Source of the DNA: Caldivirga maquilingensis IC-167 | GTDB lineage: Archaea; Thermoproteota; Thermoprotei; Thermoproteales; Thermocladiaceae | Reading direction: 5' to 3' | NCBI RefSeq assembly: GCF_000018305.1 | Contig: NC_009954.1 | Coordinates: 60,001-92,000, forward strand | DNA length: 32,000 nucleotides | Shown: positions 1-10,116 of the stretch, piece after piece | Layout: each line of letters opens with the position of its first letter | Position numbering within the stretch: the first letter of the stretch is position 1 | Position numbers and translations under genes: made by a program | Notes under the pieces: model-generated | Databases searched by the model: none | What the model saw: only the letters and a program-made list of their open reading frames with translations | Told to the model about the DNA's origin: nothing

Positions 1-257
1 ATTAATACGCTGGCATTATTTTTAAGTAGTTGATAAGCATCATAGAATCTTGAGGTACAGCCGTTGACGCATCCATTATATGGTTCACTGTAGTTTAATG
101 CATTAATAACCTTAAGCATTGTGTACTCAAGGGTGTTAATAAGCCTACTGCATTCATCATTATACCTATGGGTGGGTATGTAAACTATGATTAATGCGAT
201 AATTAAGGCAATCACAGTCACCAGAATCCAAGCCAACGCACTACGCATCACACTCAT
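1..257 (-). CDS. Hypothetical membrane-anchored protein, N-terminal fragment; the gene runs off the left edge of the window
   Basis: My manual reverse translation from ATG (257-255) is open for 85 codons to position 1: MSVMRSALAWILVTVIALIIALIIVYIPTHRYNDECS... It shows one N-terminal hydrophobic anchor followed by a Cys-containing tail. An A/T box (catatattaagg on the minus strand) lies about 21 nt upstream. It is absent from the ORF track because it is truncated. Confidence 0.35.
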   Translation of the reverse strand, partial: MSVMRSALAWILVTVIALIIALIIVYIPTHRYNDECSRLINTLEYTMLKVINALNYSEPYNGCVNGCTSRFYDAYQLLKNNASVL

Positions 258-351: not shown

Positions 352-1539
352 TTAACCCTCCATCTGCCTATAAAGGTAAGCCTTCTGGGGATTCGTTAAT
401 TGAAGAAGCGTATTAATTAATTCCCTGACATTATCATTACTTGTACTTAACCCAGCGTACTTAGTTAAAAGTGATTTAACATAGTCAAGTAACCGGGAAT
501 CAACCCTAACATATGTATCCACTAAATCGAGTAAATACGGGTAACCTGTGTTAGTTGTCTGTGATGATAAGTACCCAACAATGTTAGGTGCACCTATTCC
601 ACCTAGGTCAAGTACCTCTAGTTTAGTTGCAACAGCAGTTATTGGGGCCTTGTAGAATATGAGTTCCGTGTTCGCTATCTTAGGTATTCCACTTAACCTT
701 CCCCCATCTCCACTGAAAACCCTCTTCAAATTCTCAACACCCTCACTGAGTCTCCGTTCAGCCTCCTCCCTACTCATACCCCTCTTAATCTCGCAATCCA
801 TGTAATTAACTTGAAGCCACTGCGGCAGTAAATTACCGTAATTACCTAGGCTAATGTACTCACCCTTATTGAGGAGTAGGCTAGCCATGAGTTTATCATT
901 TGTTGATAAGCAGTGGCCAGTGTAAATGGAAAGGTACCTTGATCTAACCCTCTTAACGACACCAATTATGGTTGTTCTGGTTTTTTCAGCAAGGTTAAGC
1001 ATTCTCTCTAATACATCCTCAACCCTCCTCCTAACACCCTCATAGGCGGGTAGATTATACGGTAATGGGTGAATGTAAATCTCCCCATCAAGTATTACTA
1101 AGTCTATGTTCTTCCTACCCTGCATCTTATCCTTAAGTAGTTTAATCACCATTTCCCTTTCCCTTATCTTTGACAGTATTTCAATTGACCTACTGATTTC
1201 ACTAGTGTCCTCGTAAAGTATGTCACCTGTAACATACCTATCTGACTTACCTCCAACCTGGCCAACATAACCATAGGCTATTACCGTTAAGACACCTCCA
1301 ACTAACTCAAGTGGTGACGGTGGGAAACTTGAATCTACGGCGTATGCGAAGTACCTGCTTCCACTAATATTGGGTATTGGGCCTATTCTACCTGAGACCT
1401 TGGCCTTAAGTTCATTAACCTCATTCATAACTGAGGTTAAGTTAAGCCTATTAGCAATACTCTTAGCGTCCTCAAATAATGCATTAAGTAGGGGTGGATC
1501 AACCCAGAGGTCTATGGTGAGGTCTTCATTATTAAACAA
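352..1539 (-). CDS. nurA: NurA-type nuclease (RNase-H-fold 5'-3' nuclease family)
   Basis: 395-aa ORF. It carries NurA-like acidic motifs: YAVDSS near residue 69 and LVILDGEIY near residue 151. The TTG start (1539-1537) lies 1 nt after the upstream HerA-type gene's stop codon and is preceded by AAGGAGGTGAGGTGA, an SD-like motif. Pairing with a HerA-type ATPase is the classic NurA context. Confidence 0.7.
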   Translation of the reverse strand: MFNNEDLTIDLWVDPPLLNALFEDAKSIANRLNLTSVMNEVNELKAKVSGRIGPIPNISGSRYFAYAVDSSFPPSPLELVGGVLTVIAYGYVGQVGGKSDRYVTGDILYEDTSEISRSIEILSKIREREMVIKLLKDKMQGRKNIDLVILDGEIYIHPLPYNLPAYEGVRRRVEDVLERMLNLAEKTRTTIIGVVKRVRSRYLSIYTGHCLSTNDKLMASLLLNKGEYISLGNYGNLLPQWLQVNYMDCEIKRGMSREEAERRLSEGVENLKRVFSGDGGRLSGIPKIANTELIFYKAPITAVATKLEVLDLGGIGAPNIVGYLSSQTTNTGYPYLLDLVDTYVRVDSRLLDYVKSLLTKYAGLSTSNDNVRELINTLLQLTNPQKAYLYRQMEG

Positions 1540-1540
1540 T

Positions 1541-3007
1541 TCACCTCACCTCCTTAACCTTAATTAACAATGGTTTCCGTAATGGATTCATTAGACCTGT
1601 TACGAAGAATTCCCTAACACTTAACTGTGTTAATACTGAGTCATTAACATCAGCTAAATCCATGTAGCCACCTAATTCCCTTAAATCACCCTGCGTCGGT
1701 AATCTACTGAAGAACACTGTACCAATATTAGCCCTGACATTGGCGGCGATATCCCTAGCCATTCTTTGACTAGCTAGTATTAGGCTGAGTCCCCATTTTC
1801 TACCCTCCCTTGATGTTGTCTCTATTGGATCCTTGCATATTGTCCATGAGTCCTCAGGCACGTAATTCTGGGCCTCATCAATTATGAAGACTAACCTAGC
1901 TGGTACATTGATTTCACCGCGCTTAACCATGTCCCATGCCTCACTTATAACATCAGCAACAATTGCCTGTTTAACAACTAAGTCAGTGTCTTGACTCATA
2001 TCGATTACCGTTAATCCACGTTCAAGGGAATTCCTAACCACATCACTGGGCTTCACCGACCTCTTATTCAACTCCTCGAAGAACTCATCATCAACGAAGT
2101 AATCTATGAAGAGGCTTGCCTTATGAACCGTAGCCTCCCTGGCACTCATTTTACTCATGCTTTGCCTAAGGTGCCTTAGGAATTCCTGCTTATTCCACTT
2201 CTCAAACTTCCTATTCATTAAACCCCCCTTATCATTATCCCCCATTACATACGTTAACACCGCAACATCAAGGTACTCACCGTAGCTTTGCCAAGGTAAC
2301 TTAGCCTTCGACGCTAGGACTGAGGCTATTGTGGGTGGGCTTATTGATATTACCTTAGACCCCACTGTGTAATCCTTATAATACGTAGTGTAATCCACAC
2401 CGCTATGATCAAATACAATAATCCTATACTCACTTTTAATTAACTCATCAATTAAACCCCTAATGAGCCTTGACTTACCCATACCGGTTGCCCCAAAAAC
2501 ACCAATATGGTATTGAACGTACGTTGGATCAAGCGGCACCTCCCATCCACTATACTTATGTGAACCAATGATTACCTTACCATTAGCCTTAATGAAATTA
2601 CCTAGAAATGAACCATCCTTAATCACGTAAACCTTAGAACCAGGTGTAACAACTTGAGTTACCTCATCCATTGTATTCTTATGAACATTAAGCATACCGT
2701 AGAACCTAACTATCGCTGACGTATAGGGCATTAGTAATGATGGATCCATTATCTCCGGCCTATCTATGAATGGGTTCCTAACCCTATCCTTAACTATTGG
2801 TTCAAGCTTAGTGACCCTCCTTATTACACCGAAGAATAACCCCTCATGAATACTATCATCCTTAATCACAGCTAACTGCTCTTCCACGGCGTAGCCCTCA
2901 GCCCTTTTATAGAATTGAATCGGTGCATAAACAGTAGTGGATCCACTGGTCACTATACCAACCTCCACACAGCATTTACGCAGTAGGTTATCTGTAAGCA
3001 TAAGCAC
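1541..3007 (-). CDS. herA: HerA-type (FtsK/HerA superfamily, DUF87-like) hexameric ATPase/helicase
   Basis: 488-aa ORF. Walker A GATGMGKS is at nt 2471-2494 and Walker B VFIIDEAQ at nt 1868-1891; I verified both by back-translation. An N-terminal barrel-like region and a C-terminal ASQR...FFSRL segment are typical of HerA. A TTTATAT box (3028-3034) sits about 24 nt upstream of the ATG. Confidence 0.8.
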   Translation of the reverse strand: MLMLTDNLLRKCCVEVGIVTSGSTTVYAPIQFYKRAEGYAVEEQLAVIKDDSIHEGLFFGVIRRVTKLEPIVKDRVRNPFIDRPEIMDPSLLMPYTSAIVRFYGMLNVHKNTMDEVTQVVTPGSKVYVIKDGSFLGNFIKANGKVIIGSHKYSGWEVPLDPTYVQYHIGVFGATGMGKSRLIRGLIDELIKSEYRIIVFDHSGVDYTTYYKDYTVGSKVISISPPTIASVLASKAKLPWQSYGEYLDVAVLTYVMGDNDKGGLMNRKFEKWNKQEFLRHLRQSMSKMSAREATVHKASLFIDYFVDDEFFEELNKRSVKPSDVVRNSLERGLTVIDMSQDTDLVVKQAIVADVISEAWDMVKRGEINVPARLVFIIDEAQNYVPEDSWTICKDPIETTSREGRKWGLSLILASQRMARDIAANVRANIGTVFFSRLPTQGDLRELGGYMDLADVNDSVLTQLSVREFFVTGLMNPLRKPLLIKVKEVR

Positions 3008-3027
3008 GGTTACTGTCCGTGGGAGGC

Positions 3028-3034
3028 ATATAAA
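3028..3034 (-). promoter_or_regulatory. TATA-like box (TTTATAT) for the HerA-NurA transcription unit
   Basis: It is centred about 24 nt upstream of the HerA ATG (3007), inside the 77-bp vWA-HerA spacer. A second candidate, TTTAAACC, lies at 3066-3073. Confidence 0.4.
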
Positions 3035-3084
3035 CTTAGTGAGTAGGGTGAGTTAGCTGAAGCTTGGTTTAAAGTTTTAGTTAA

Positions 3085-4509
3085 TTATAGACCCAACTTA
3101 TCCATTATTAGAGCCTTATCGAGGTTTGATATGTCGTTTATCTTTATGAATAAGCCATTACCAATCTTAGATAACCTCATGAGTAGGTCAAAGTCACTAT
3201 TATCACCCACAGCTACTGTTGATAATGTCACACCCATGCGTCTCAACTTCACAGCCTCCTTAATGCAACTACTTGCGTTAACAGTCCTACCATCAGTAAT
3301 ACATATTATGTGTTTATTAGGGTAATTAGACTTACTTAAAATAATCCTAGCCTTCTCAAGGGCATTAGCTATGTTAGTACCACCACCTGGGTAAATGTAC
3401 CTGCTCATCTCCTCCATTTCATTAATGTACTTCTTAACTGAATGAGGACCCCATAGTATGTCGGCCCTAAAATTGAATAACACCATTGATAACCTATCAT
3501 TAGTCCTAGATAAGTACCTTATGTACTTTACAATAGCCTCCTTGGCTATGTCCATCTTCATGTAAGCCCCACTGAACTCCTTCATGCTTCCTGAGGTATC
3601 AAGACAGAGTACAATATCCATTAACTTAACATCCGCGTACTCCCTAACCACAATATCCCTTGTACTCATTGGCTTATTGAGGAATGTCTTCCTAACCATA
3701 TTCATTGAAGTCTTATCCAAGTCAATCCTATAAGCTGGGTCACCAATCCTATATTCCCTAACCCCCGTTATGTAGGTTGGGTAATTAGAATGCTCAGTGA
3801 ACCTGGAGACCCTAAGTGCATTACCTATAGTGGGTTCACGGGCCACATTATCAAGAGCCTTAAAGACCCTTGAACCACCCTTACCCTGATGTGGAAGTAA
3901 CCCATAACTAGCTAAGTATCTCGCCAACTTCCTAAGCACCTTAACCTTCTCAGTAATGTGCGCCATTGGGTTCACGAACATGTTAAGTAATTGAGCCAGG
4001 TTAATGAAATTCATGGTACCTACACTACCGTAGAAAACATCATATATGACGTTAGCCACATCATCACTTGACTCATTACCTGTACCTAATTCCTGGTTGA
4101 TTAATTGCCCGGTTCCACCATCCTTACTATCATTATTAGGACTTAACTGTGACTTACCTACATTACCCTTAACTAATCCCTCTTCATCAGTGTTTATTTC
4201 ATCATCATTACGCATATTCAAGTCATTAACGAGAGATAAGGCATACTTAAACGCCTCCTCAAGGATTTCACGCTTATCCGCACCATTGTTAACATTAACT
4301 GATGTGTAAAGATTCTCAACACCAACTCTAATTAACCTCTCTTCAATATTCCCACCACCACTAATAAGTATGTTAGCCACAATGTCCCTAAGCGCATACT
4401 CATAACTCCTCACTGAACCTGGGCTTACAACGTCCCGGTGGTTAACTAGGTATTGGTAAACCCTACTCAGTACCATTGATATGAACTTCTCAATATCATT
4501 CCCCTCCAC
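3085..4509 (-). CDS. von Willebrand factor A (vWA) domain protein with a complete MIDAS motif; the N-terminal ~290 aa are uncharacterised
   Basis: 474-aa ORF with a GTG start. MIDAS D-T-S-G-S is at nt 3586-3600 (verified), followed by GGGT and ICITDG. The segment RIDLDKTSMNMVRK upstream of the vWA domain resembles CoxE-type vWA proteins. An Asn/Asp/Gly-rich low-complexity linker covers residues ~97-150 (nt 4060-4221). Confidence 0.85.
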   Translation of the reverse strand: MEGNDIEKFISMVLSRVYQYLVNHRDVVSPGSVRSYEYALRDIVANILISGGGNIEERLIRVGVENLYTSVNVNNGADKREILEEAFKYALSLVNDLNMRNDDEINTDEEGLVKGNVGKSQLSPNNDSKDGGTGQLINQELGTGNESSDDVANVIYDVFYGSVGTMNFINLAQLLNMFVNPMAHITEKVKVLRKLARYLASYGLLPHQGKGGSRVFKALDNVAREPTIGNALRVSRFTEHSNYPTYITGVREYRIGDPAYRIDLDKTSMNMVRKTFLNKPMSTRDIVVREYADVKLMDIVLCLDTSGSMKEFSGAYMKMDIAKEAIVKYIRYLSRTNDRLSMVLFNFRADILWGPHSVKKYINEMEEMSRYIYPGGGTNIANALEKARIILSKSNYPNKHIICITDGRTVNASSCIKEAVKLRRMGVTLSTVAVGDNSDFDLLMRLSKIGNGLFIKINDISNLDKALIMDKLGL

Positions 4510-4529
4510 TTGATTAACACCCAGGCCAG

Positions 4530-4537
4530 TTTATAAA
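4530..4537 (-). promoter_or_regulatory. TATA-like box (TTTATAAA) for the vWA gene
   Basis: An A/T palindromic octamer is centred about 24 nt upstream of the GTG start at 4509. The same spacing recurs at many first genes in this window. Confidence 0.45.
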
Positions 4538-6480: not shown

Positions 6481-7356
6481 TTAGTTGTTTGGGTTTTTCA
6501 TTATTATGAACATTGGTGTTCCTATGCTGCCTTGGAGGTTCTTAGGTATGAGTAATGATGCTATATTATTGACTTGACTCCATGCACTACTAGTCATGTT
6601 TACTGCTTGCGTGGGATTTAACGTTACCTTGCATTCTGGGTAGTATGTACTGTTGAGTAGGCGGTAGGAGAATATTGGGTAGTAGATTAAGTATGCTTGA
6701 TTATTATACTCAACGTAGGGTACTAAACCATACATGAAGTCGGCGATGTATGTTTCATTTATGGCACTCAATGTTTGAGTGGCATTAACACTACTAATGC
6801 ACTTCCATTGAAGCCATAAGGCGACACTATCATTGAATGCTTGAAGAAGAACAGTGGCATTAGGCTGTTGTTGATAAGCCTGGTAGTAGCCTAATGCATG
6901 AGTGGGGAAGTACACCGCAATATAGTAGACTCGCCCACTCTCAATTAATGGCGTTATCTGACTGAAATTATAAACATCAAATATAGCGCAGTATGGGCAG
7001 ACTGGGTCTAGGAACTCAATAAGCCACACAGGGGCCTTGGGGTTACCGTAAGTTATCACATAATCATTACCACCCTCAACAAGCCTCAAAACATACTGAA
7101 CAGCATTAGGCGTTAATGAACCAACACCCTCACCACTACCCAAACCACTCAACCCATAACCATAAACAACATCACGAACCAAAGTAGGAACATTAGGATA
7201 AGCACCAATAACATAAACAAAACCATTACTGGGTAGTGACTTACCTATGCTTAATCCAGGAATTCTTAAAGGTATTATACCTAGTATTGATGTTACTAAC
7301 ACTACCGCCACTACAGCAACCACTACTGCTACTATGATTATTACTTTGCTATTCAT
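6481..7356 (-). CDS. Membrane-anchored thioredoxin-fold / DsbA-like thiol:disulfide oxidoreductase (CPYC active site)
   Basis: 291 aa with an N-terminal signal-anchor (IIIVAVVVAVVAVVLV). CPYC is at nt 6988-6999 (verified) in the context LDPVCPYCAIF. By my count there are 7 N-x-S/T sequons, suggesting an extracytoplasmic glycoprotein. Confidence 0.65.
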   Translation of the reverse strand: MNSKVIIIVAVVVAVVAVVLVTSILGIIPLRIPGLSIGKSLPSNGFVYVIGAYPNVPTLVRDVVYGYGLSGLGSGEGVGSLTPNAVQYVLRLVEGGNDYVITYGNPKAPVWLIEFLDPVCPYCAIFDVYNFSQITPLIESGRVYYIAVYFPTHALGYYQAYQQQPNATVLLQAFNDSVALWLQWKCISSVNATQTLSAINETYIADFMYGLVPYVEYNNQAYLIYYPIFSYRLLNSTYYPECKVTLNPTQAVNMTSSAWSQVNNIASLLIPKNLQGSIGTPMFIIMKNPNN

Positions 7357-7501: not shown

Positions 7502-8584
7502 TCATTGATTATTCAACTCAATTACCTTTGCATCATTTACCCTCGGCCTTAGTCTACTTGAGGCTATTATCTGAAGATCCTTAGATTTAGCATACTTACC
7601 CACTGCACTTAATACGTTTTCCAGTGATTCCTCATTAAGCCCTATGTCCACTCCATCAATTATTATAGTGGAGCCTCTGGGGGCTAGGACTAATTGAACG
7701 ATAAGCGGTAGTATTGACCTTACCCCTAACCCAGCATTGTAGAGTACCCCCCATGATCCCTTAGCCTTTATGAAACCCATTAACCTATTAGGTGCTATGA
7801 AGCCGGCTGTTACATCCTCAACATTTAAGGACTGCATCTCGCTCAGAATTTCCTTAACCTGCTCCCTATAGCTTGGTACAGTGAGCATTCTTGATAATTG
7901 GTGAACAGTATACTGTGCATCACCACCCACTGAGTAATCTGGTAGTAAGTCAACTGTTGTTTCAAAGGTCCTCTTCCACCATGCTAACCTATTCTCCCCT
8001 ATGAAGAAGAACCTATCTCTTAATCCCTGTCTTAGTGAGAATAAGACGGCCTTAGCCACCTTAACTGAATCAGGTGGATCACTGCATGTCTCTAAGGCAT
8101 CTTCATGCATAATGTGGTATGGGGTTATGCATAAGTCTATGATTTCAGGCTTAAGTATCATGTTCTTATCATTAATCCTACCGAAGGTAACTAAGAGATT
8201 ATCATTAAGCCAAACCTCCTGCTCAACATTACCTGAGGAGTGAATAAAACTGTAACTATAGGTTATGCTCCCTGAATTAGCATTAATGCCAGTATCCTTT
8301 AGGAAACTTGAAATCTGATCATCAATACTGAACCTTAGGCTAACAGTAACCCTACTACTGGTATCCAGGTTCCTTAACACATCAACCACATCATGAATCA
8401 TTAATAACCTACCTTCAATAATTAATGCATCCTCACCCCTTGACTGCATTATGAGTGTAATCGCCTCAAGCATTGATGACTTCCCACTGGAAGGGGGACC
8501 GACAATTACGTTCAAGCCCTCACTGAACTCCACGCATGCATTCCCAATAGCCTTGAAATTACCTACACACGCCTTAATTATCAT
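7502..8584 (-). CDS. SMC/ABC-like (AAA_15/AAA_21-type) ATPase with a non-canonical Walker B
   Basis: 360 aa. The N-terminus NFKAIGN...LNVIVGPPSSGKSSMLEAI carries Walker A at nt 8477-8500. An internal FFIGENR...VGGDAQYTVHQL segment and a C-terminal NAGLGVRSILPLIV...IIIDGVD (nt 7646-7666) match the layout of this ATPase family. Gly replaces the usual catalytic Glu. Confidence 0.7.
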   Translation of the reverse strand: MIIKACVGNFKAIGNACVEFSEGLNVIVGPPSSGKSSMLEAITLIMQSRGEDALIIEGRLLMIHDVVDVLRNLDTSSRVTVSLRFSIDDQISSFLKDTGINANSGSITYSYSFIHSSGNVEQEVWLNDNLLVTFGRINDKNMILKPEIIDLCITPYHIMHEDALETCSDPPDSVKVAKAVLFSLRQGLRDRFFFIGENRLAWWKRTFETTVDLLPDYSVGGDAQYTVHQLSRMLTVPSYREQVKEILSEMQSLNVEDVTAGFIAPNRLMGFIKAKGSWGVLYNAGLGVRSILPLIVQLVLAPRGSTIIIDGVDIGLNEESLENVLSAVGKYAKSKDLQIIASSRLRPRVNDAKVIELNNQ

Positions 8585-9096: not shown

Positions 9097-10116
9097 TCAA
9101 CTCCAAATTAACATTGATGTAGTCGTGTATGTTATTGGAATTACCGCAGTTTCCTGTGTTCCATTGATAATGTAGGTTACTTGTAGTTGGTAATGAATAA
9201 GGGGCATTGAGAATAGTATGAAGGAACCCATGCATGCGGCTGTGACATTGTAAGCAAATGTATCCCAGTAGCCGCTTAGCCAGTAATGTATTGTAGTTAC
9301 TGCTGATGCATTATAGAGGGGTAGGTATAATTGACCAATGGGGGTGGGAATATAGTTGACACTGGTTCCATTAGGGAAGGCTGTTTTCGAAATTGAGGTA
9401 CATGTTAGTAATACTGTTCCATTGGGTGCAATAAGCCTATAACCAATTACAGAGAAGGGTAATGGAGCCAGGTAGGTTAAAAGCACTTCAGATGGCCATG
9501 AATCACTGGCTGCGGCATAGGCGTAAATGGAGTTTTGAAGCGTGGTGAAATTAGTGACTATGTATGAGTAAGTGCGCGTTGATCCATTAACCAGGGTGTA
9601 GCTTAGGGTTATTGTGGAGCCAGGTAAGGTACTTAATGCATAGTACACAGGTCCTATAACAGTGCTTCTAATGGTCTCTGAACCACCAGCCACCTGATTG
9701 AAATTATATATAGTGCTTACTGCTAATATGGTGCTATTGAAGTAAACGAACACTGGGTATGTTATGGTGCTTAAGGGTGGTATTGATACAGTACCCACGT
9801 AATATGTACGGGCAGAGTAAGGTAGCATTGTTATATCTAAGTCATATAGGAATTGCGTATAATTCTCAGGGTTACTTATCGTAAACACTATAGCGTATCC
9901 ATCTTCAGTGGCGTAAATTGCAGAGACATTAATCATGGGTAATTGCCCGTACTTATTATTAATAAGTTGAAGATTAGTTAAGGATTCAAGTAAGTTACTA
10001 TACCTTGAATTAACCGTACCTAAGGTAGCCTTCATGGTAAGGTACATGTACACGAAGAATACGGCCACTGCTAGGGCTATTACCATTACTGTAATGTAAA
10101 TGTACTGCCTCATCAC
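9097..10116 (-). CDS. Hypothetical membrane-anchored, heavily sequon-bearing extracellular protein
   Basis: 339 aa with an N-terminal anchor (ITVMVIALAVAVFFVYMYL). The composition is rich in Tyr, Thr and Ser. By my count there are 10 N-x-S/T sequons. I recognise no catalytic motif. Confidence 0.65.
   Translation of the reverse strand: MMRQYIYITVMVIALAVAVFFVYMYLTMKATLGTVNSRYSNLLESLTNLQLINNKYGQLPMINVSAIYATEDGYAIVFTISNPENYTQFLYDLDITMLPYSARTYYVGTVSIPPLSTITYPVFVYFNSTILAVSTIYNFNQVAGGSETIRSTVIGPVYYALSTLPGSTITLSYTLVNGSTRTYSYIVTNFTTLQNSIYAYAAASDSWPSEVLLTYLAPLPFSVIGYRLIAPNGTVLLTCTSISKTAFPNGTSVNYIPTPIGQLYLPLYNASAVTTIHYWLSGYWDTFAYNVTAACMGSFILFSMPLIHYQLQVTYIINGTQETAVIPITYTTTSMLIWS

Follow-up and report, generated by a model that had tools for sequence, protein, structure and literature searches.

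The window analyzed here is a 32 kb stretch of chromosomal DNA from Caldivirga maquilingensis, a thermoacidophilic archaeon of the order Thermoproteales. It carries three co-directional genes on the minus strand, encoding a von Willebrand factor A (vWA) protein with a complete metal-ion-dependent adhesion site (MIDAS), a HerA-family ATPase and a nuclease with the NurA fold. We find it probable (roughly 0.7) that these genes represent two independent units which became neighbors through a rearrangement in the Caldivirga lineage, namely an operon of a paralogous herA-nurA pair and a vWA gene of a MoxR-associated family. A new three-part system for targeting nucleic acids is not supported.

The three gene models were recovered unchanged when genes had been called independently on public contigs of identical sequence. 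A preliminary description of this DNA had named the genes vWA, HerA-type and NurA-type, and these assignments were borne out by the gene calls and by matches to the Pfam models NurA, DUF87, and VWA/VWA_CoxE.

The setting of the vWA gene was found to differ between Caldivirga and its relatives. A scan for the vWA family in one genome per species gave 39 Thermoproteales loci, in which the window proteins were then searched and the neighbors clustered. A MoxR-type gene (AAA_5, 78.8 bits; AAA_3, 71.7 bits) was located directly 5' of vWA in 35/35 loci from outside the Caldivirga lineage. It was co-directional with vWA and very strongly conserved, and in Pyrobaculum oguniense the two genes overlap by 8 nt. 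That vWA proteins usually partner MoxR ATPases was already mentioned in the preliminary description, and this proved to be the key to the locus. When metagenomes were scanned with the MoxR alignment, vWA was found downstream of MoxR in 38 further loci. The gene for the primase large subunit PriL follows vWA co-directionally in 24 of the 35 loci, as in P. oguniense (L037 8659-12461) and Vulcanisaeta (L012 5060-9002), and in Pyrobaculum the gene for the AGOG 8-oxoguanine glycosylase comes next and overlaps PriL.

No MoxR gene is present next to vWA in the window or in any other Caldivirga-lineage locus. Contigs without vWA or PriL nearby carried a MoxR of a separate lineage, with 67-68% identity to Thermocladium as well as to Vulcanisaeta. 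Exact-sequence look-up identified it as "MoxR family ATPase [Caldivirga sp. MU80]" and as the protein of other Caldivirga spp., and the genome of MU80 also carries the vWA-herA-nurA arrangement (L008). In Thermocladium UBA166, herA-nurA is located on one contig and MoxR-vWA on another. Based on the loci of the relatives, the unlinked MoxR of Caldivirga and the two Thermocladium contigs, we infer an ancestral state with a MoxR-vWA(-PriL) cluster and a separate herA-nurA pair. In the Caldivirga lineage vWA would then have moved beside herA-nurA, while MoxR stayed elsewhere.

A gene for a Clp1_P-type polynucleotide kinase was found divergently upstream of MoxR-vWA in most Thermoproteales (L012; L037 7283-8572, 112 bits in P. 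oguniense). In Caldivirga the Clp1_P-type kinase gene (L001 17078-18343) lies about 5.6 kb downstream of vWA, beside PCNA and FEN1. Such a shift would fit an ancestral DNA-metabolism neighborhood that was inverted or rearranged.

The vWA protein itself matched Pfam VWA with 60.8 bits (cut-off 23.8, residues 298-464), VWA_CoxE with 43 bits and DUF58 with 23.1 bits. It consists of an N-terminal helical domain (residues 1 to about 95), a linker (97-150), a second conserved region (about 160-295) and the C-terminal vWA domain. The MIDAS is complete, and the family shows no variation at D304, S306, S308, T378, and D406. The Asn/Asp/Gly-rich linker, which the preliminary description had placed at nt 4060-4221 as a low-complexity segment, corresponds to residues 97-150, varies in length within the family and is disordered in the AlphaFold2 model (predicted local distance difference test, pLDDT, below 50 at residues 100-147). 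An 87-amino-acid open reading frame (ORF) antisense to this linker (4046-4309, plus strand) mirrors the repetitive coding sequence and is almost certainly spurious. Fold matches of the model were of a generic vWA kind and included the NorQD complex of MoxR and vWA proteins, and the fold search of the PDB returned nothing for the N-terminal domain. The family is restricted to Thermoproteales, and its Pyrobaculum members are without the N-terminal helical domain and the linker. The Caldivirga protein keeps every residue that is invariant in the family and does not show unusual divergence. We take it to be an orthologue of the MoxR-associated vWA family, a membership that follows from orthology and not from the local context.

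It could also be that vWA, HerA, and NurA form one module, in which vWA senses or recruits and HerA-NurA degrades, and that HerA has replaced MoxR as the ATPase partner of vWA as a Caldivirga innovation. The genes are close and co-directional with a gap of 77 nt, their adjacency is kept in seven Caldivirga-lineage loci down to 62% identity, and vWA is physically apart from MoxR in this lineage. However, none of the 35 vWA loci from other Thermoproteales shows the adjacency, nor does any herA-nurA locus examined outside Caldivirga. In addition, a highly conserved MoxR gene is retained in Caldivirga, herA has a conserved promoter element of its own, and vWA, as described above, has kept all family-invariant residues. 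A membrane-anchored DsbA-like thioredoxin gene (Thioredoxin_4; 6481-7356, minus strand) is the upstream neighbor of vWA. It was found in every Caldivirga-lineage locus with that flank, including the 62-67% identical L010 and L089 (L009 starts inside vWA). As the thioredoxin-like gene is equally syntenic, the Caldivirga adjacency looks like block synteny. A single three-component module is thus unlikely. From the proposal in the preliminary description, a paralogous HerA-NurA machine under a vWA adaptor or sensor, the paralogous and non-canonical nature of the pair could be retained, while the vWA adaptor could not, since the adjacency is confined to the seven Caldivirga-lineage loci and vWA follows MoxR in all others. 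Literature searches gave nothing relevant, either for a system of vWA, HerA and NurA or for a connection of MoxR-vWA to primase.

The spacer between vWA and herA is 77 nt long and carries a TATA-like box, TTTATAT. Its core TTTATA is rare, with 21 occurrences on both strands of the window (64 kb). In 6/6 spacers from the Caldivirga lineage, (G/C)TTTATAT or TTTAATA was kept 26-28 nt 5' of the herA start. Because this box is conserved in an otherwise diverging spacer, herA-nurA is likely to have a transcript of its own that is probably leaderless, which supports a putative promoter independent of vWA. The spacing also makes the ATG of herA at 3001-2999 a likelier start than the GTG. These observations agree with the two transcription units suggested previously, and the TTTATAT box, the TTTATAAA box upstream of vWA and the length of the spacer were all read as described there. 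Read-through from vWA into herA may nevertheless occur.

A short AAA(A/G)(C/T)TTTAA(A/G)C-like element directly 3' of the vWA stop codon (approximately 3062-3084, minus strand) was kept in the Caldivirga-lineage spacers and could be a candidate oligo-T terminator or a regulatory site. A tandem GTGAGT repeat had been reported at 3043-3056. We found two copies at 3039-3044 and 3048-3053 with AGG between them. The hexamer is common and occurs 23 times in the window, and Caldivirga sp. UBA161, the closest relative, has not kept the second copy. The repeat was therefore rejected as a feature and probably arose by chance.

The last codons of herA contain the Shine-Dalgarno (SD)-like element GGAGGTGA, which is likewise rare and occurs four times on both strands of the window (64 kb). 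GAGGTG in the last herA codons, together with a spacer of 0-2 nt or an overlap of stop and start codons, was kept in Caldivirga spp., Thermocladium, P. aerophilum, and one metagenome-assembled genome (MAG). Where nurA starts with TTG in the window, its orthologues carry ATG or GTG. The stop codon, spacer, start codon and SD-like element are as noted before, and their conservation supports a translational coupling of nurA to herA.

Table 1. Coordinates of the genes and sequence elements in the window, and the vWA gene arrangements found in Thermoproteales.
Feature	Position or loci	Strand	Details
nurA-like gene	352-1539	-	395 amino acids, TTG start, divergent NurA-family nuclease with predicted RNase-H fold
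herA-like gene	1541-3007	-	488 amino acids from GTG; 486 amino acids from ATG at 3001-2999
vWA gene	3085-4509	-	474 amino acids, GTG start
herA/nurA junction	1541-1555	-	TGA 1543-1541, 1-nt spacer, TTG 1539-1537
AAGGAGGTGAGGTGA at herA/nurA junction	1555-1541	-	Read from sequence
SD-like GGAGGTGA within last herA codons	1553-1546	-	Read from sequence
TATA-like box TTTATAT of herA-nurA	3028-3034	-	20 nt before GTG and 26 nt before ATG of herA
TATA-like box TTTATAAA of vWA	4530-4537	-	20 nt before vWA GTG; read from sequence
vWA-herA-nurA arrangement	7 loci (L001, L002, L007-L010, L089)		Caldivirga spp., one 62%-identical MAG, one metagenomic contig
MoxR-type gene directly upstream of vWA, no herA/nurA within 10 kb	35 loci (L011-L045)		Vulcanisaeta, Thermocladium, Pyrobaculum, Thermoproteus, MAGs

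The product of the herA-like gene matched the Pfam DUF87/HerA central domain with 71.7 bits (cut-off 23.2, residues 147-353). Walker A (GATGMGKS, 172-179) and Walker B (FIIDEAQ, 374-380, with D377/E378) are invariant in the family alignment, which has a mean column identity of 64%; intact Walker motifs and a full MIDAS had both been noted earlier. Residues 59-471 are colinear with residues 39-449 of HerA from S. solfataricus (SsoHerA, 4d2i), with 42 bits for the single sequence and 61.6 bits for the family profile. The NCBIfam models NF040937 (HerA_Thermprot) and NF040819 gave 48.7 bits against a cut-off of 800 and 17 bits against a cut-off of 970, respectively. An exhaustive search with the family profile against 1.84 billion representatives resulted in 46 clusters at E <= 1e-30, and the top 150 all had at least 72.9 bits. 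Since at least 150 clusters outscore SsoHerA (72.9 vs. 61.6 bits) and the protein falls far below the cut-off of the canonical equivalogue, we consider this a distinct subfamily. The protein is predicted to be a hexameric ATPase of the FtsK-HerA superfamily, apart from canonical HerA. The subfamily reaches at least Ignisphaera, with Ignisphaera aggregans as the one distant representative named.

The 395-amino-acid product of the nurA-like gene matched Pfam NurA (PF09376) with 61 bits (cut-off 21, residues 66-346), as the preliminary assignment had implied, and its orthologues scored 56-114 bits. Sequence searches of solved structures, with the single sequence as well as with the family profile, found no solved NurA, and the fold was therefore established with AlphaFold2 and Foldseek. 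The model has a pLDDT of 87.9, and the 10 best PDB matches out of 10 were NurA structures with a TM-score of about 0.5. NurA from the HerA-NurA complex of T. kodakarensis was the best (9x1m_G, E 2.6e-11), followed by NurA from S. solfataricus (2ygk) and P. furiosus (3tal/3tai/3taz), and the identity to the solved NurA structures in the structural alignment was about 12-14%. D69, E127, D151, D338, and D341 are invariant across the family alignment. They are located in strand 65-71 (D69), helix 115-139 (E127), the end of strand 147-151 (D151) and helix 335-344 (D338/D341). Judged by these strand and helix positions in the model, they sit where the active-site carboxylates of an RNase-H-type nuclease are expected. 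Based on the model, the protein appears to be a divergent but genuine NurA, with predicted nuclease activity.

The herA-nurA pair was found to be conserved beyond Caldivirga. The identity of the HerA-like protein is 62% to Thermocladium, 58-59% to Vulcanisaeta, and 52-53% to Pyrobaculum, i.e., it falls with phylogenetic distance. The two genes are adjacent in all Caldivirga lineages. They are also adjacent, with a spacer of 0-2 nt or an overlap and no vWA neighbor, in P. aerophilum, Thermocladium UBA166, and an uncultured Thermoproteales MAG, where they lie in housekeeping contexts. In Vulcanisaeta the herA-like, nurA-like and vWA genes are dispersed, with herA-like and nurA-like alone at separate loci. 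The lone herA-like gene of V. moutnovskia (L004 9452-17455) is followed by a HepT/MNT-type toxin-antitoxin pair on the opposite strand and six ORFs (186-741 amino acids) without Pfam matches. Neighbors of the herA-nurA loci include genes for tRNA synthetases, SHMT, PCNA, and FEN1. Altogether, these comparisons indicate that the pair is vertically inherited and behaves as part of the core genome.

In agreement with the preliminary description, Mre11 and Rad50 were not found among the other ORFs of the window in profile searches of the 32 kb, and neither were Cas proteins. No mre11 or rad50 gene was located within 8-10 kb of the orthologous loci L001, L003, L087, and L088. A literature search for Caldivirga together with Mre11, Rad50 or HerA gave nothing usable.

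The pair could be the main HerA-NurA of homologous recombination in this organism, diverged and unlinked from mre11-rad50. This would fit with the full-length colinearity with SsoHerA, the NurA fold, the name "DNA double-strand break repair nuclease NurA" given to the orthologues by the annotation pipeline PGAP, and the presence of PCNA, FEN1, and a Clp1-like kinase nearby; furthermore, a second pair in C. maquilingensis is deduced from sister genera and model scores. It is at odds with the score of the canonical equivalogue model for Thermoprotei HerA, 48.7 bits at a cut-off of 800, and with the failure of the NurA family profile to find a solved NurA by sequence. Sister genera also have a separate pair that is nearer to SSO2251, with E values of 1e-34 to 5e-40 (Bernick et al., 2012), compared to about 1e-5 to 1e-12 for the present HerA group. 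We therefore regard the pair as very unlikely to be the main recombination HerA-NurA.

At least three nurA-herA paralogue pairs were described in Pyrobaculum and Vulcanisaeta (Bernick et al., 2012; PMC3396285). One set is associated with CRISPR in the order nurA-csm6-herA, PAE2902/2903 are the putative recombination orthologues, and PAE2154/2155 form a pair related to neither CRISPR nor homologous recombination, of which the Vulcanisaeta members Vdis_1272/Vdis_1306 are not collocated (Bernick et al., 2012). In P. aerophilum, the orthologue identified in this work is accompanied by an adjacent NurA gene, csm6 is absent, and SsoHerA is matched with E 9e-8. Because the P. aerophilum pair is adjacent, free of csm6 and only weakly similar to SsoHerA, and the Vulcanisaeta genes are split, the orthologues fit the PAE2154/2155 group. 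The Caldivirga pair would accordingly belong to this second, uncharacterized paralogue group, an assignment made by elimination and score pattern and not from a tree with named locus tags. A paralogous HerA-NurA that is independent of Mre11/Rad50 is thus supported, but the paralogue group is already present in the literature.

HerA-NurA could also have a role in defense against viruses or plasmids, by degradation of invading DNA like Sir2-HerA, DUF4297-HerA or the HerA/NurA-like TdpAB of thermophiles; immune modules had been brought up in the preliminary description. The HerA-like protein matched the generic HerA and mad8 models of PADLOC (57-71 bits) and no others, bacterial defense HerA ATPases are among its best PDB sequence matches, and the NurA model matched TdpB by fold (8wfd_G, E 6.4e-7). 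Another nurA-herA paralogue of Thermoproteales is, as mentioned, CRISPR-associated. However, PADLOC gave no matches for the NurA-like and vWA proteins, and canonical NurA structures matched the model better than TdpB. The neighborhoods are of a housekeeping type, and no cas, csm6, dnd, tdp, mobile-element or modification genes adjoined the herA-nurA loci examined. Members of the csm6/cas family were not found in the ORFs of the window or in the flanks of L001, in searches that included no scan aimed at CRISPR repeat arrays. Conservation tracks phylogeny with 64% mean column identity, whereas defense genes are patchy. The immune module was therefore not upheld, and defense is an improbable function of the pair.

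Taken together, the evidence favors two units. The first (352-3007) would be a two-gene herA-nurA operon with its own TATA-type promoter and translationally coupled nurA, and would be neither the recombination pair of the Mre11-Rad50 type nor the nurA-csm6-herA set associated with CRISPR. By analogy with the solved HerA-NurA complexes, a NurA dimer may cap a HerA hexamer, and the complex may thread a DNA end and degrade one or both strands with ATP. Because the pair behaves as core genome, a housekeeping role in DNA processing may be assumed (repair, replication-fork processing or processing of imported DNA) and not mobile immunity; processing of chromosomal DNA is more likely than defense as the role of the paralogous pair. 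The second unit (3085-4509) would be a vWA gene separated from the ancestral MoxR-vWA(-PriL) operon. Most probably, its product still acts together with MoxR, whose gene lies elsewhere in the genome, in the role of a MIDAS-dependent adaptor or chaperone partner.

Some observations weigh against two independent units. All loci seen in the Caldivirga lineage have the three genes together, even at 62% vWA identity and where the downstream genes have changed (L010), and such persistence may leave room for a selective or regulatory link within this lineage. The canonical herA-nurA-mre11-rad50 set and the MoxR gene of C. maquilingensis itself are extrapolated from sister taxa. In all lineages the neighbors of vWA are DNA-metabolism genes (PriL and AGOG elsewhere; HerA-NurA, PCNA, and FEN1 in Caldivirga), which could hint at a shared pathway. 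Based on PriL, AGOG, and the Clp1-type kinase as neighbors in the relatives, and HerA-NurA, PCNA, and FEN1 in Caldivirga, the MoxR-vWA of Thermoproteales might be a DNA replication or repair factor, and the Caldivirga vWA a MIDAS adaptor for loading or regulating the paralogous HerA-NurA. In eukaryotic DNA repair, such an adaptor would have a parallel in the vWA domains of Ku and TFIIH p44. We assign this possibility a low probability and prefer two independent units.

The remaining ORFs of the window are of a housekeeping type. They encode a major facilitator superfamily transporter, the DsbA-like thioredoxin, an SDR protein, Fur, rubrerythrin, thiamine enzymes, a tRNA-synthetase-like protein, an Obg-like GTPase, stomatin/NfeD, and an aldehyde dehydrogenase. 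A 360-amino-acid ABC/SMC-type ATPase (7502-8584, minus strand; AAA_15, AAA_21) is conserved in Caldivirga spp. It has a full-length PADLOC match to NsnB (68.9 bits) and many N-terminal matches of the Gabija, PARIS, and AbiL types. No recognizable nuclease partner was found for it, and the next minus-strand ORF (9097-10116) is without a Pfam match. Downstream of nurA by approximately 95 nt, a gene for a 143-amino-acid predicted membrane protein without a Pfam match (1-257, minus strand) extends past the start of the window (L001 14253-14684). It is followed by a thioredoxin gene and an unknown gene of 215 codons. Caldivirga spp. share this block, whereas L010, the relative with 62% identity, has not kept it.

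If the two units are indeed independent, the locus does not belong on a list of new defense or nucleic-acid-targeting systems, and two units of known kinds would have been joined in it as an artefact of rearrangement. The strong conservation and vertical inheritance of the paralogous HerA-NurA across Thermoproteales would mean that at least two or three distinct HerA-NurA machines operate in these archaea. The almost invariant MoxR-vWA-PriL arrangement across the order suggests an unstudied link between an AAA+ chaperone, MoxR-vWA, and the iron-sulfur primase subunit PriL. PriL, the conserved third gene of the Thermoproteales cluster, is not known to be a client of MoxR-vWA. Although located outside the window, this conservation is the most interesting by-product of the analysis.

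Compared to known systems, the pair is most similar to the PAE2154/2155 and Vdis_1272/Vdis_1306 group. Both come from the same order of archaea and show an intermediate strength of the NurA Pfam match and a weak HerA similarity to SSO2251, and the group is likewise adjacent in Pyrobaculum, split in Vulcanisaeta and vertically inherited. The Caldivirga pair differs in having vWA as upstream neighbor. With the canonical HerA-NurA end-resection complex (4D2I/2YGK; T. kodakarensis 9X1L-P) it shares an ATPase colinear with SsoHerA, intact Walker motifs, a NurA fold with invariant acids, and two adjacent, translationally coupled genes. It differs by the missing linkage to mre11-rad50, by the HerA score (48.7 bits vs. 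a cut-off of 800), and by a NurA identity of about 12-14% to the solved structures. The immune systems Sir2-HerA, DUF4297-HerA, TdpAB, and nurA-csm6-herA also combine a HerA-family ATPase with a nuclease, and the generic PADLOC HerA matches and the fold likeness to TdpB point in this direction, but the Caldivirga pair is without a defense-island context, csm6 or a modification gene and its inheritance is vertical and core-like. The vWA protein resembles the partners in the CoxD/CoxE, NorQ/NorD, and RavA/ViaA pairs, with its VWA_CoxE and DUF58 matches, its complete MIDAS, its fold match to NorD, and orthologues that are encoded directly after a MoxR-type (AAA_3/AAA_5) gene. Unlike in these pairs, MoxR is not adjacent in Caldivirga, and the vWA family has an N-terminal helical domain and a disordered linker of its own.

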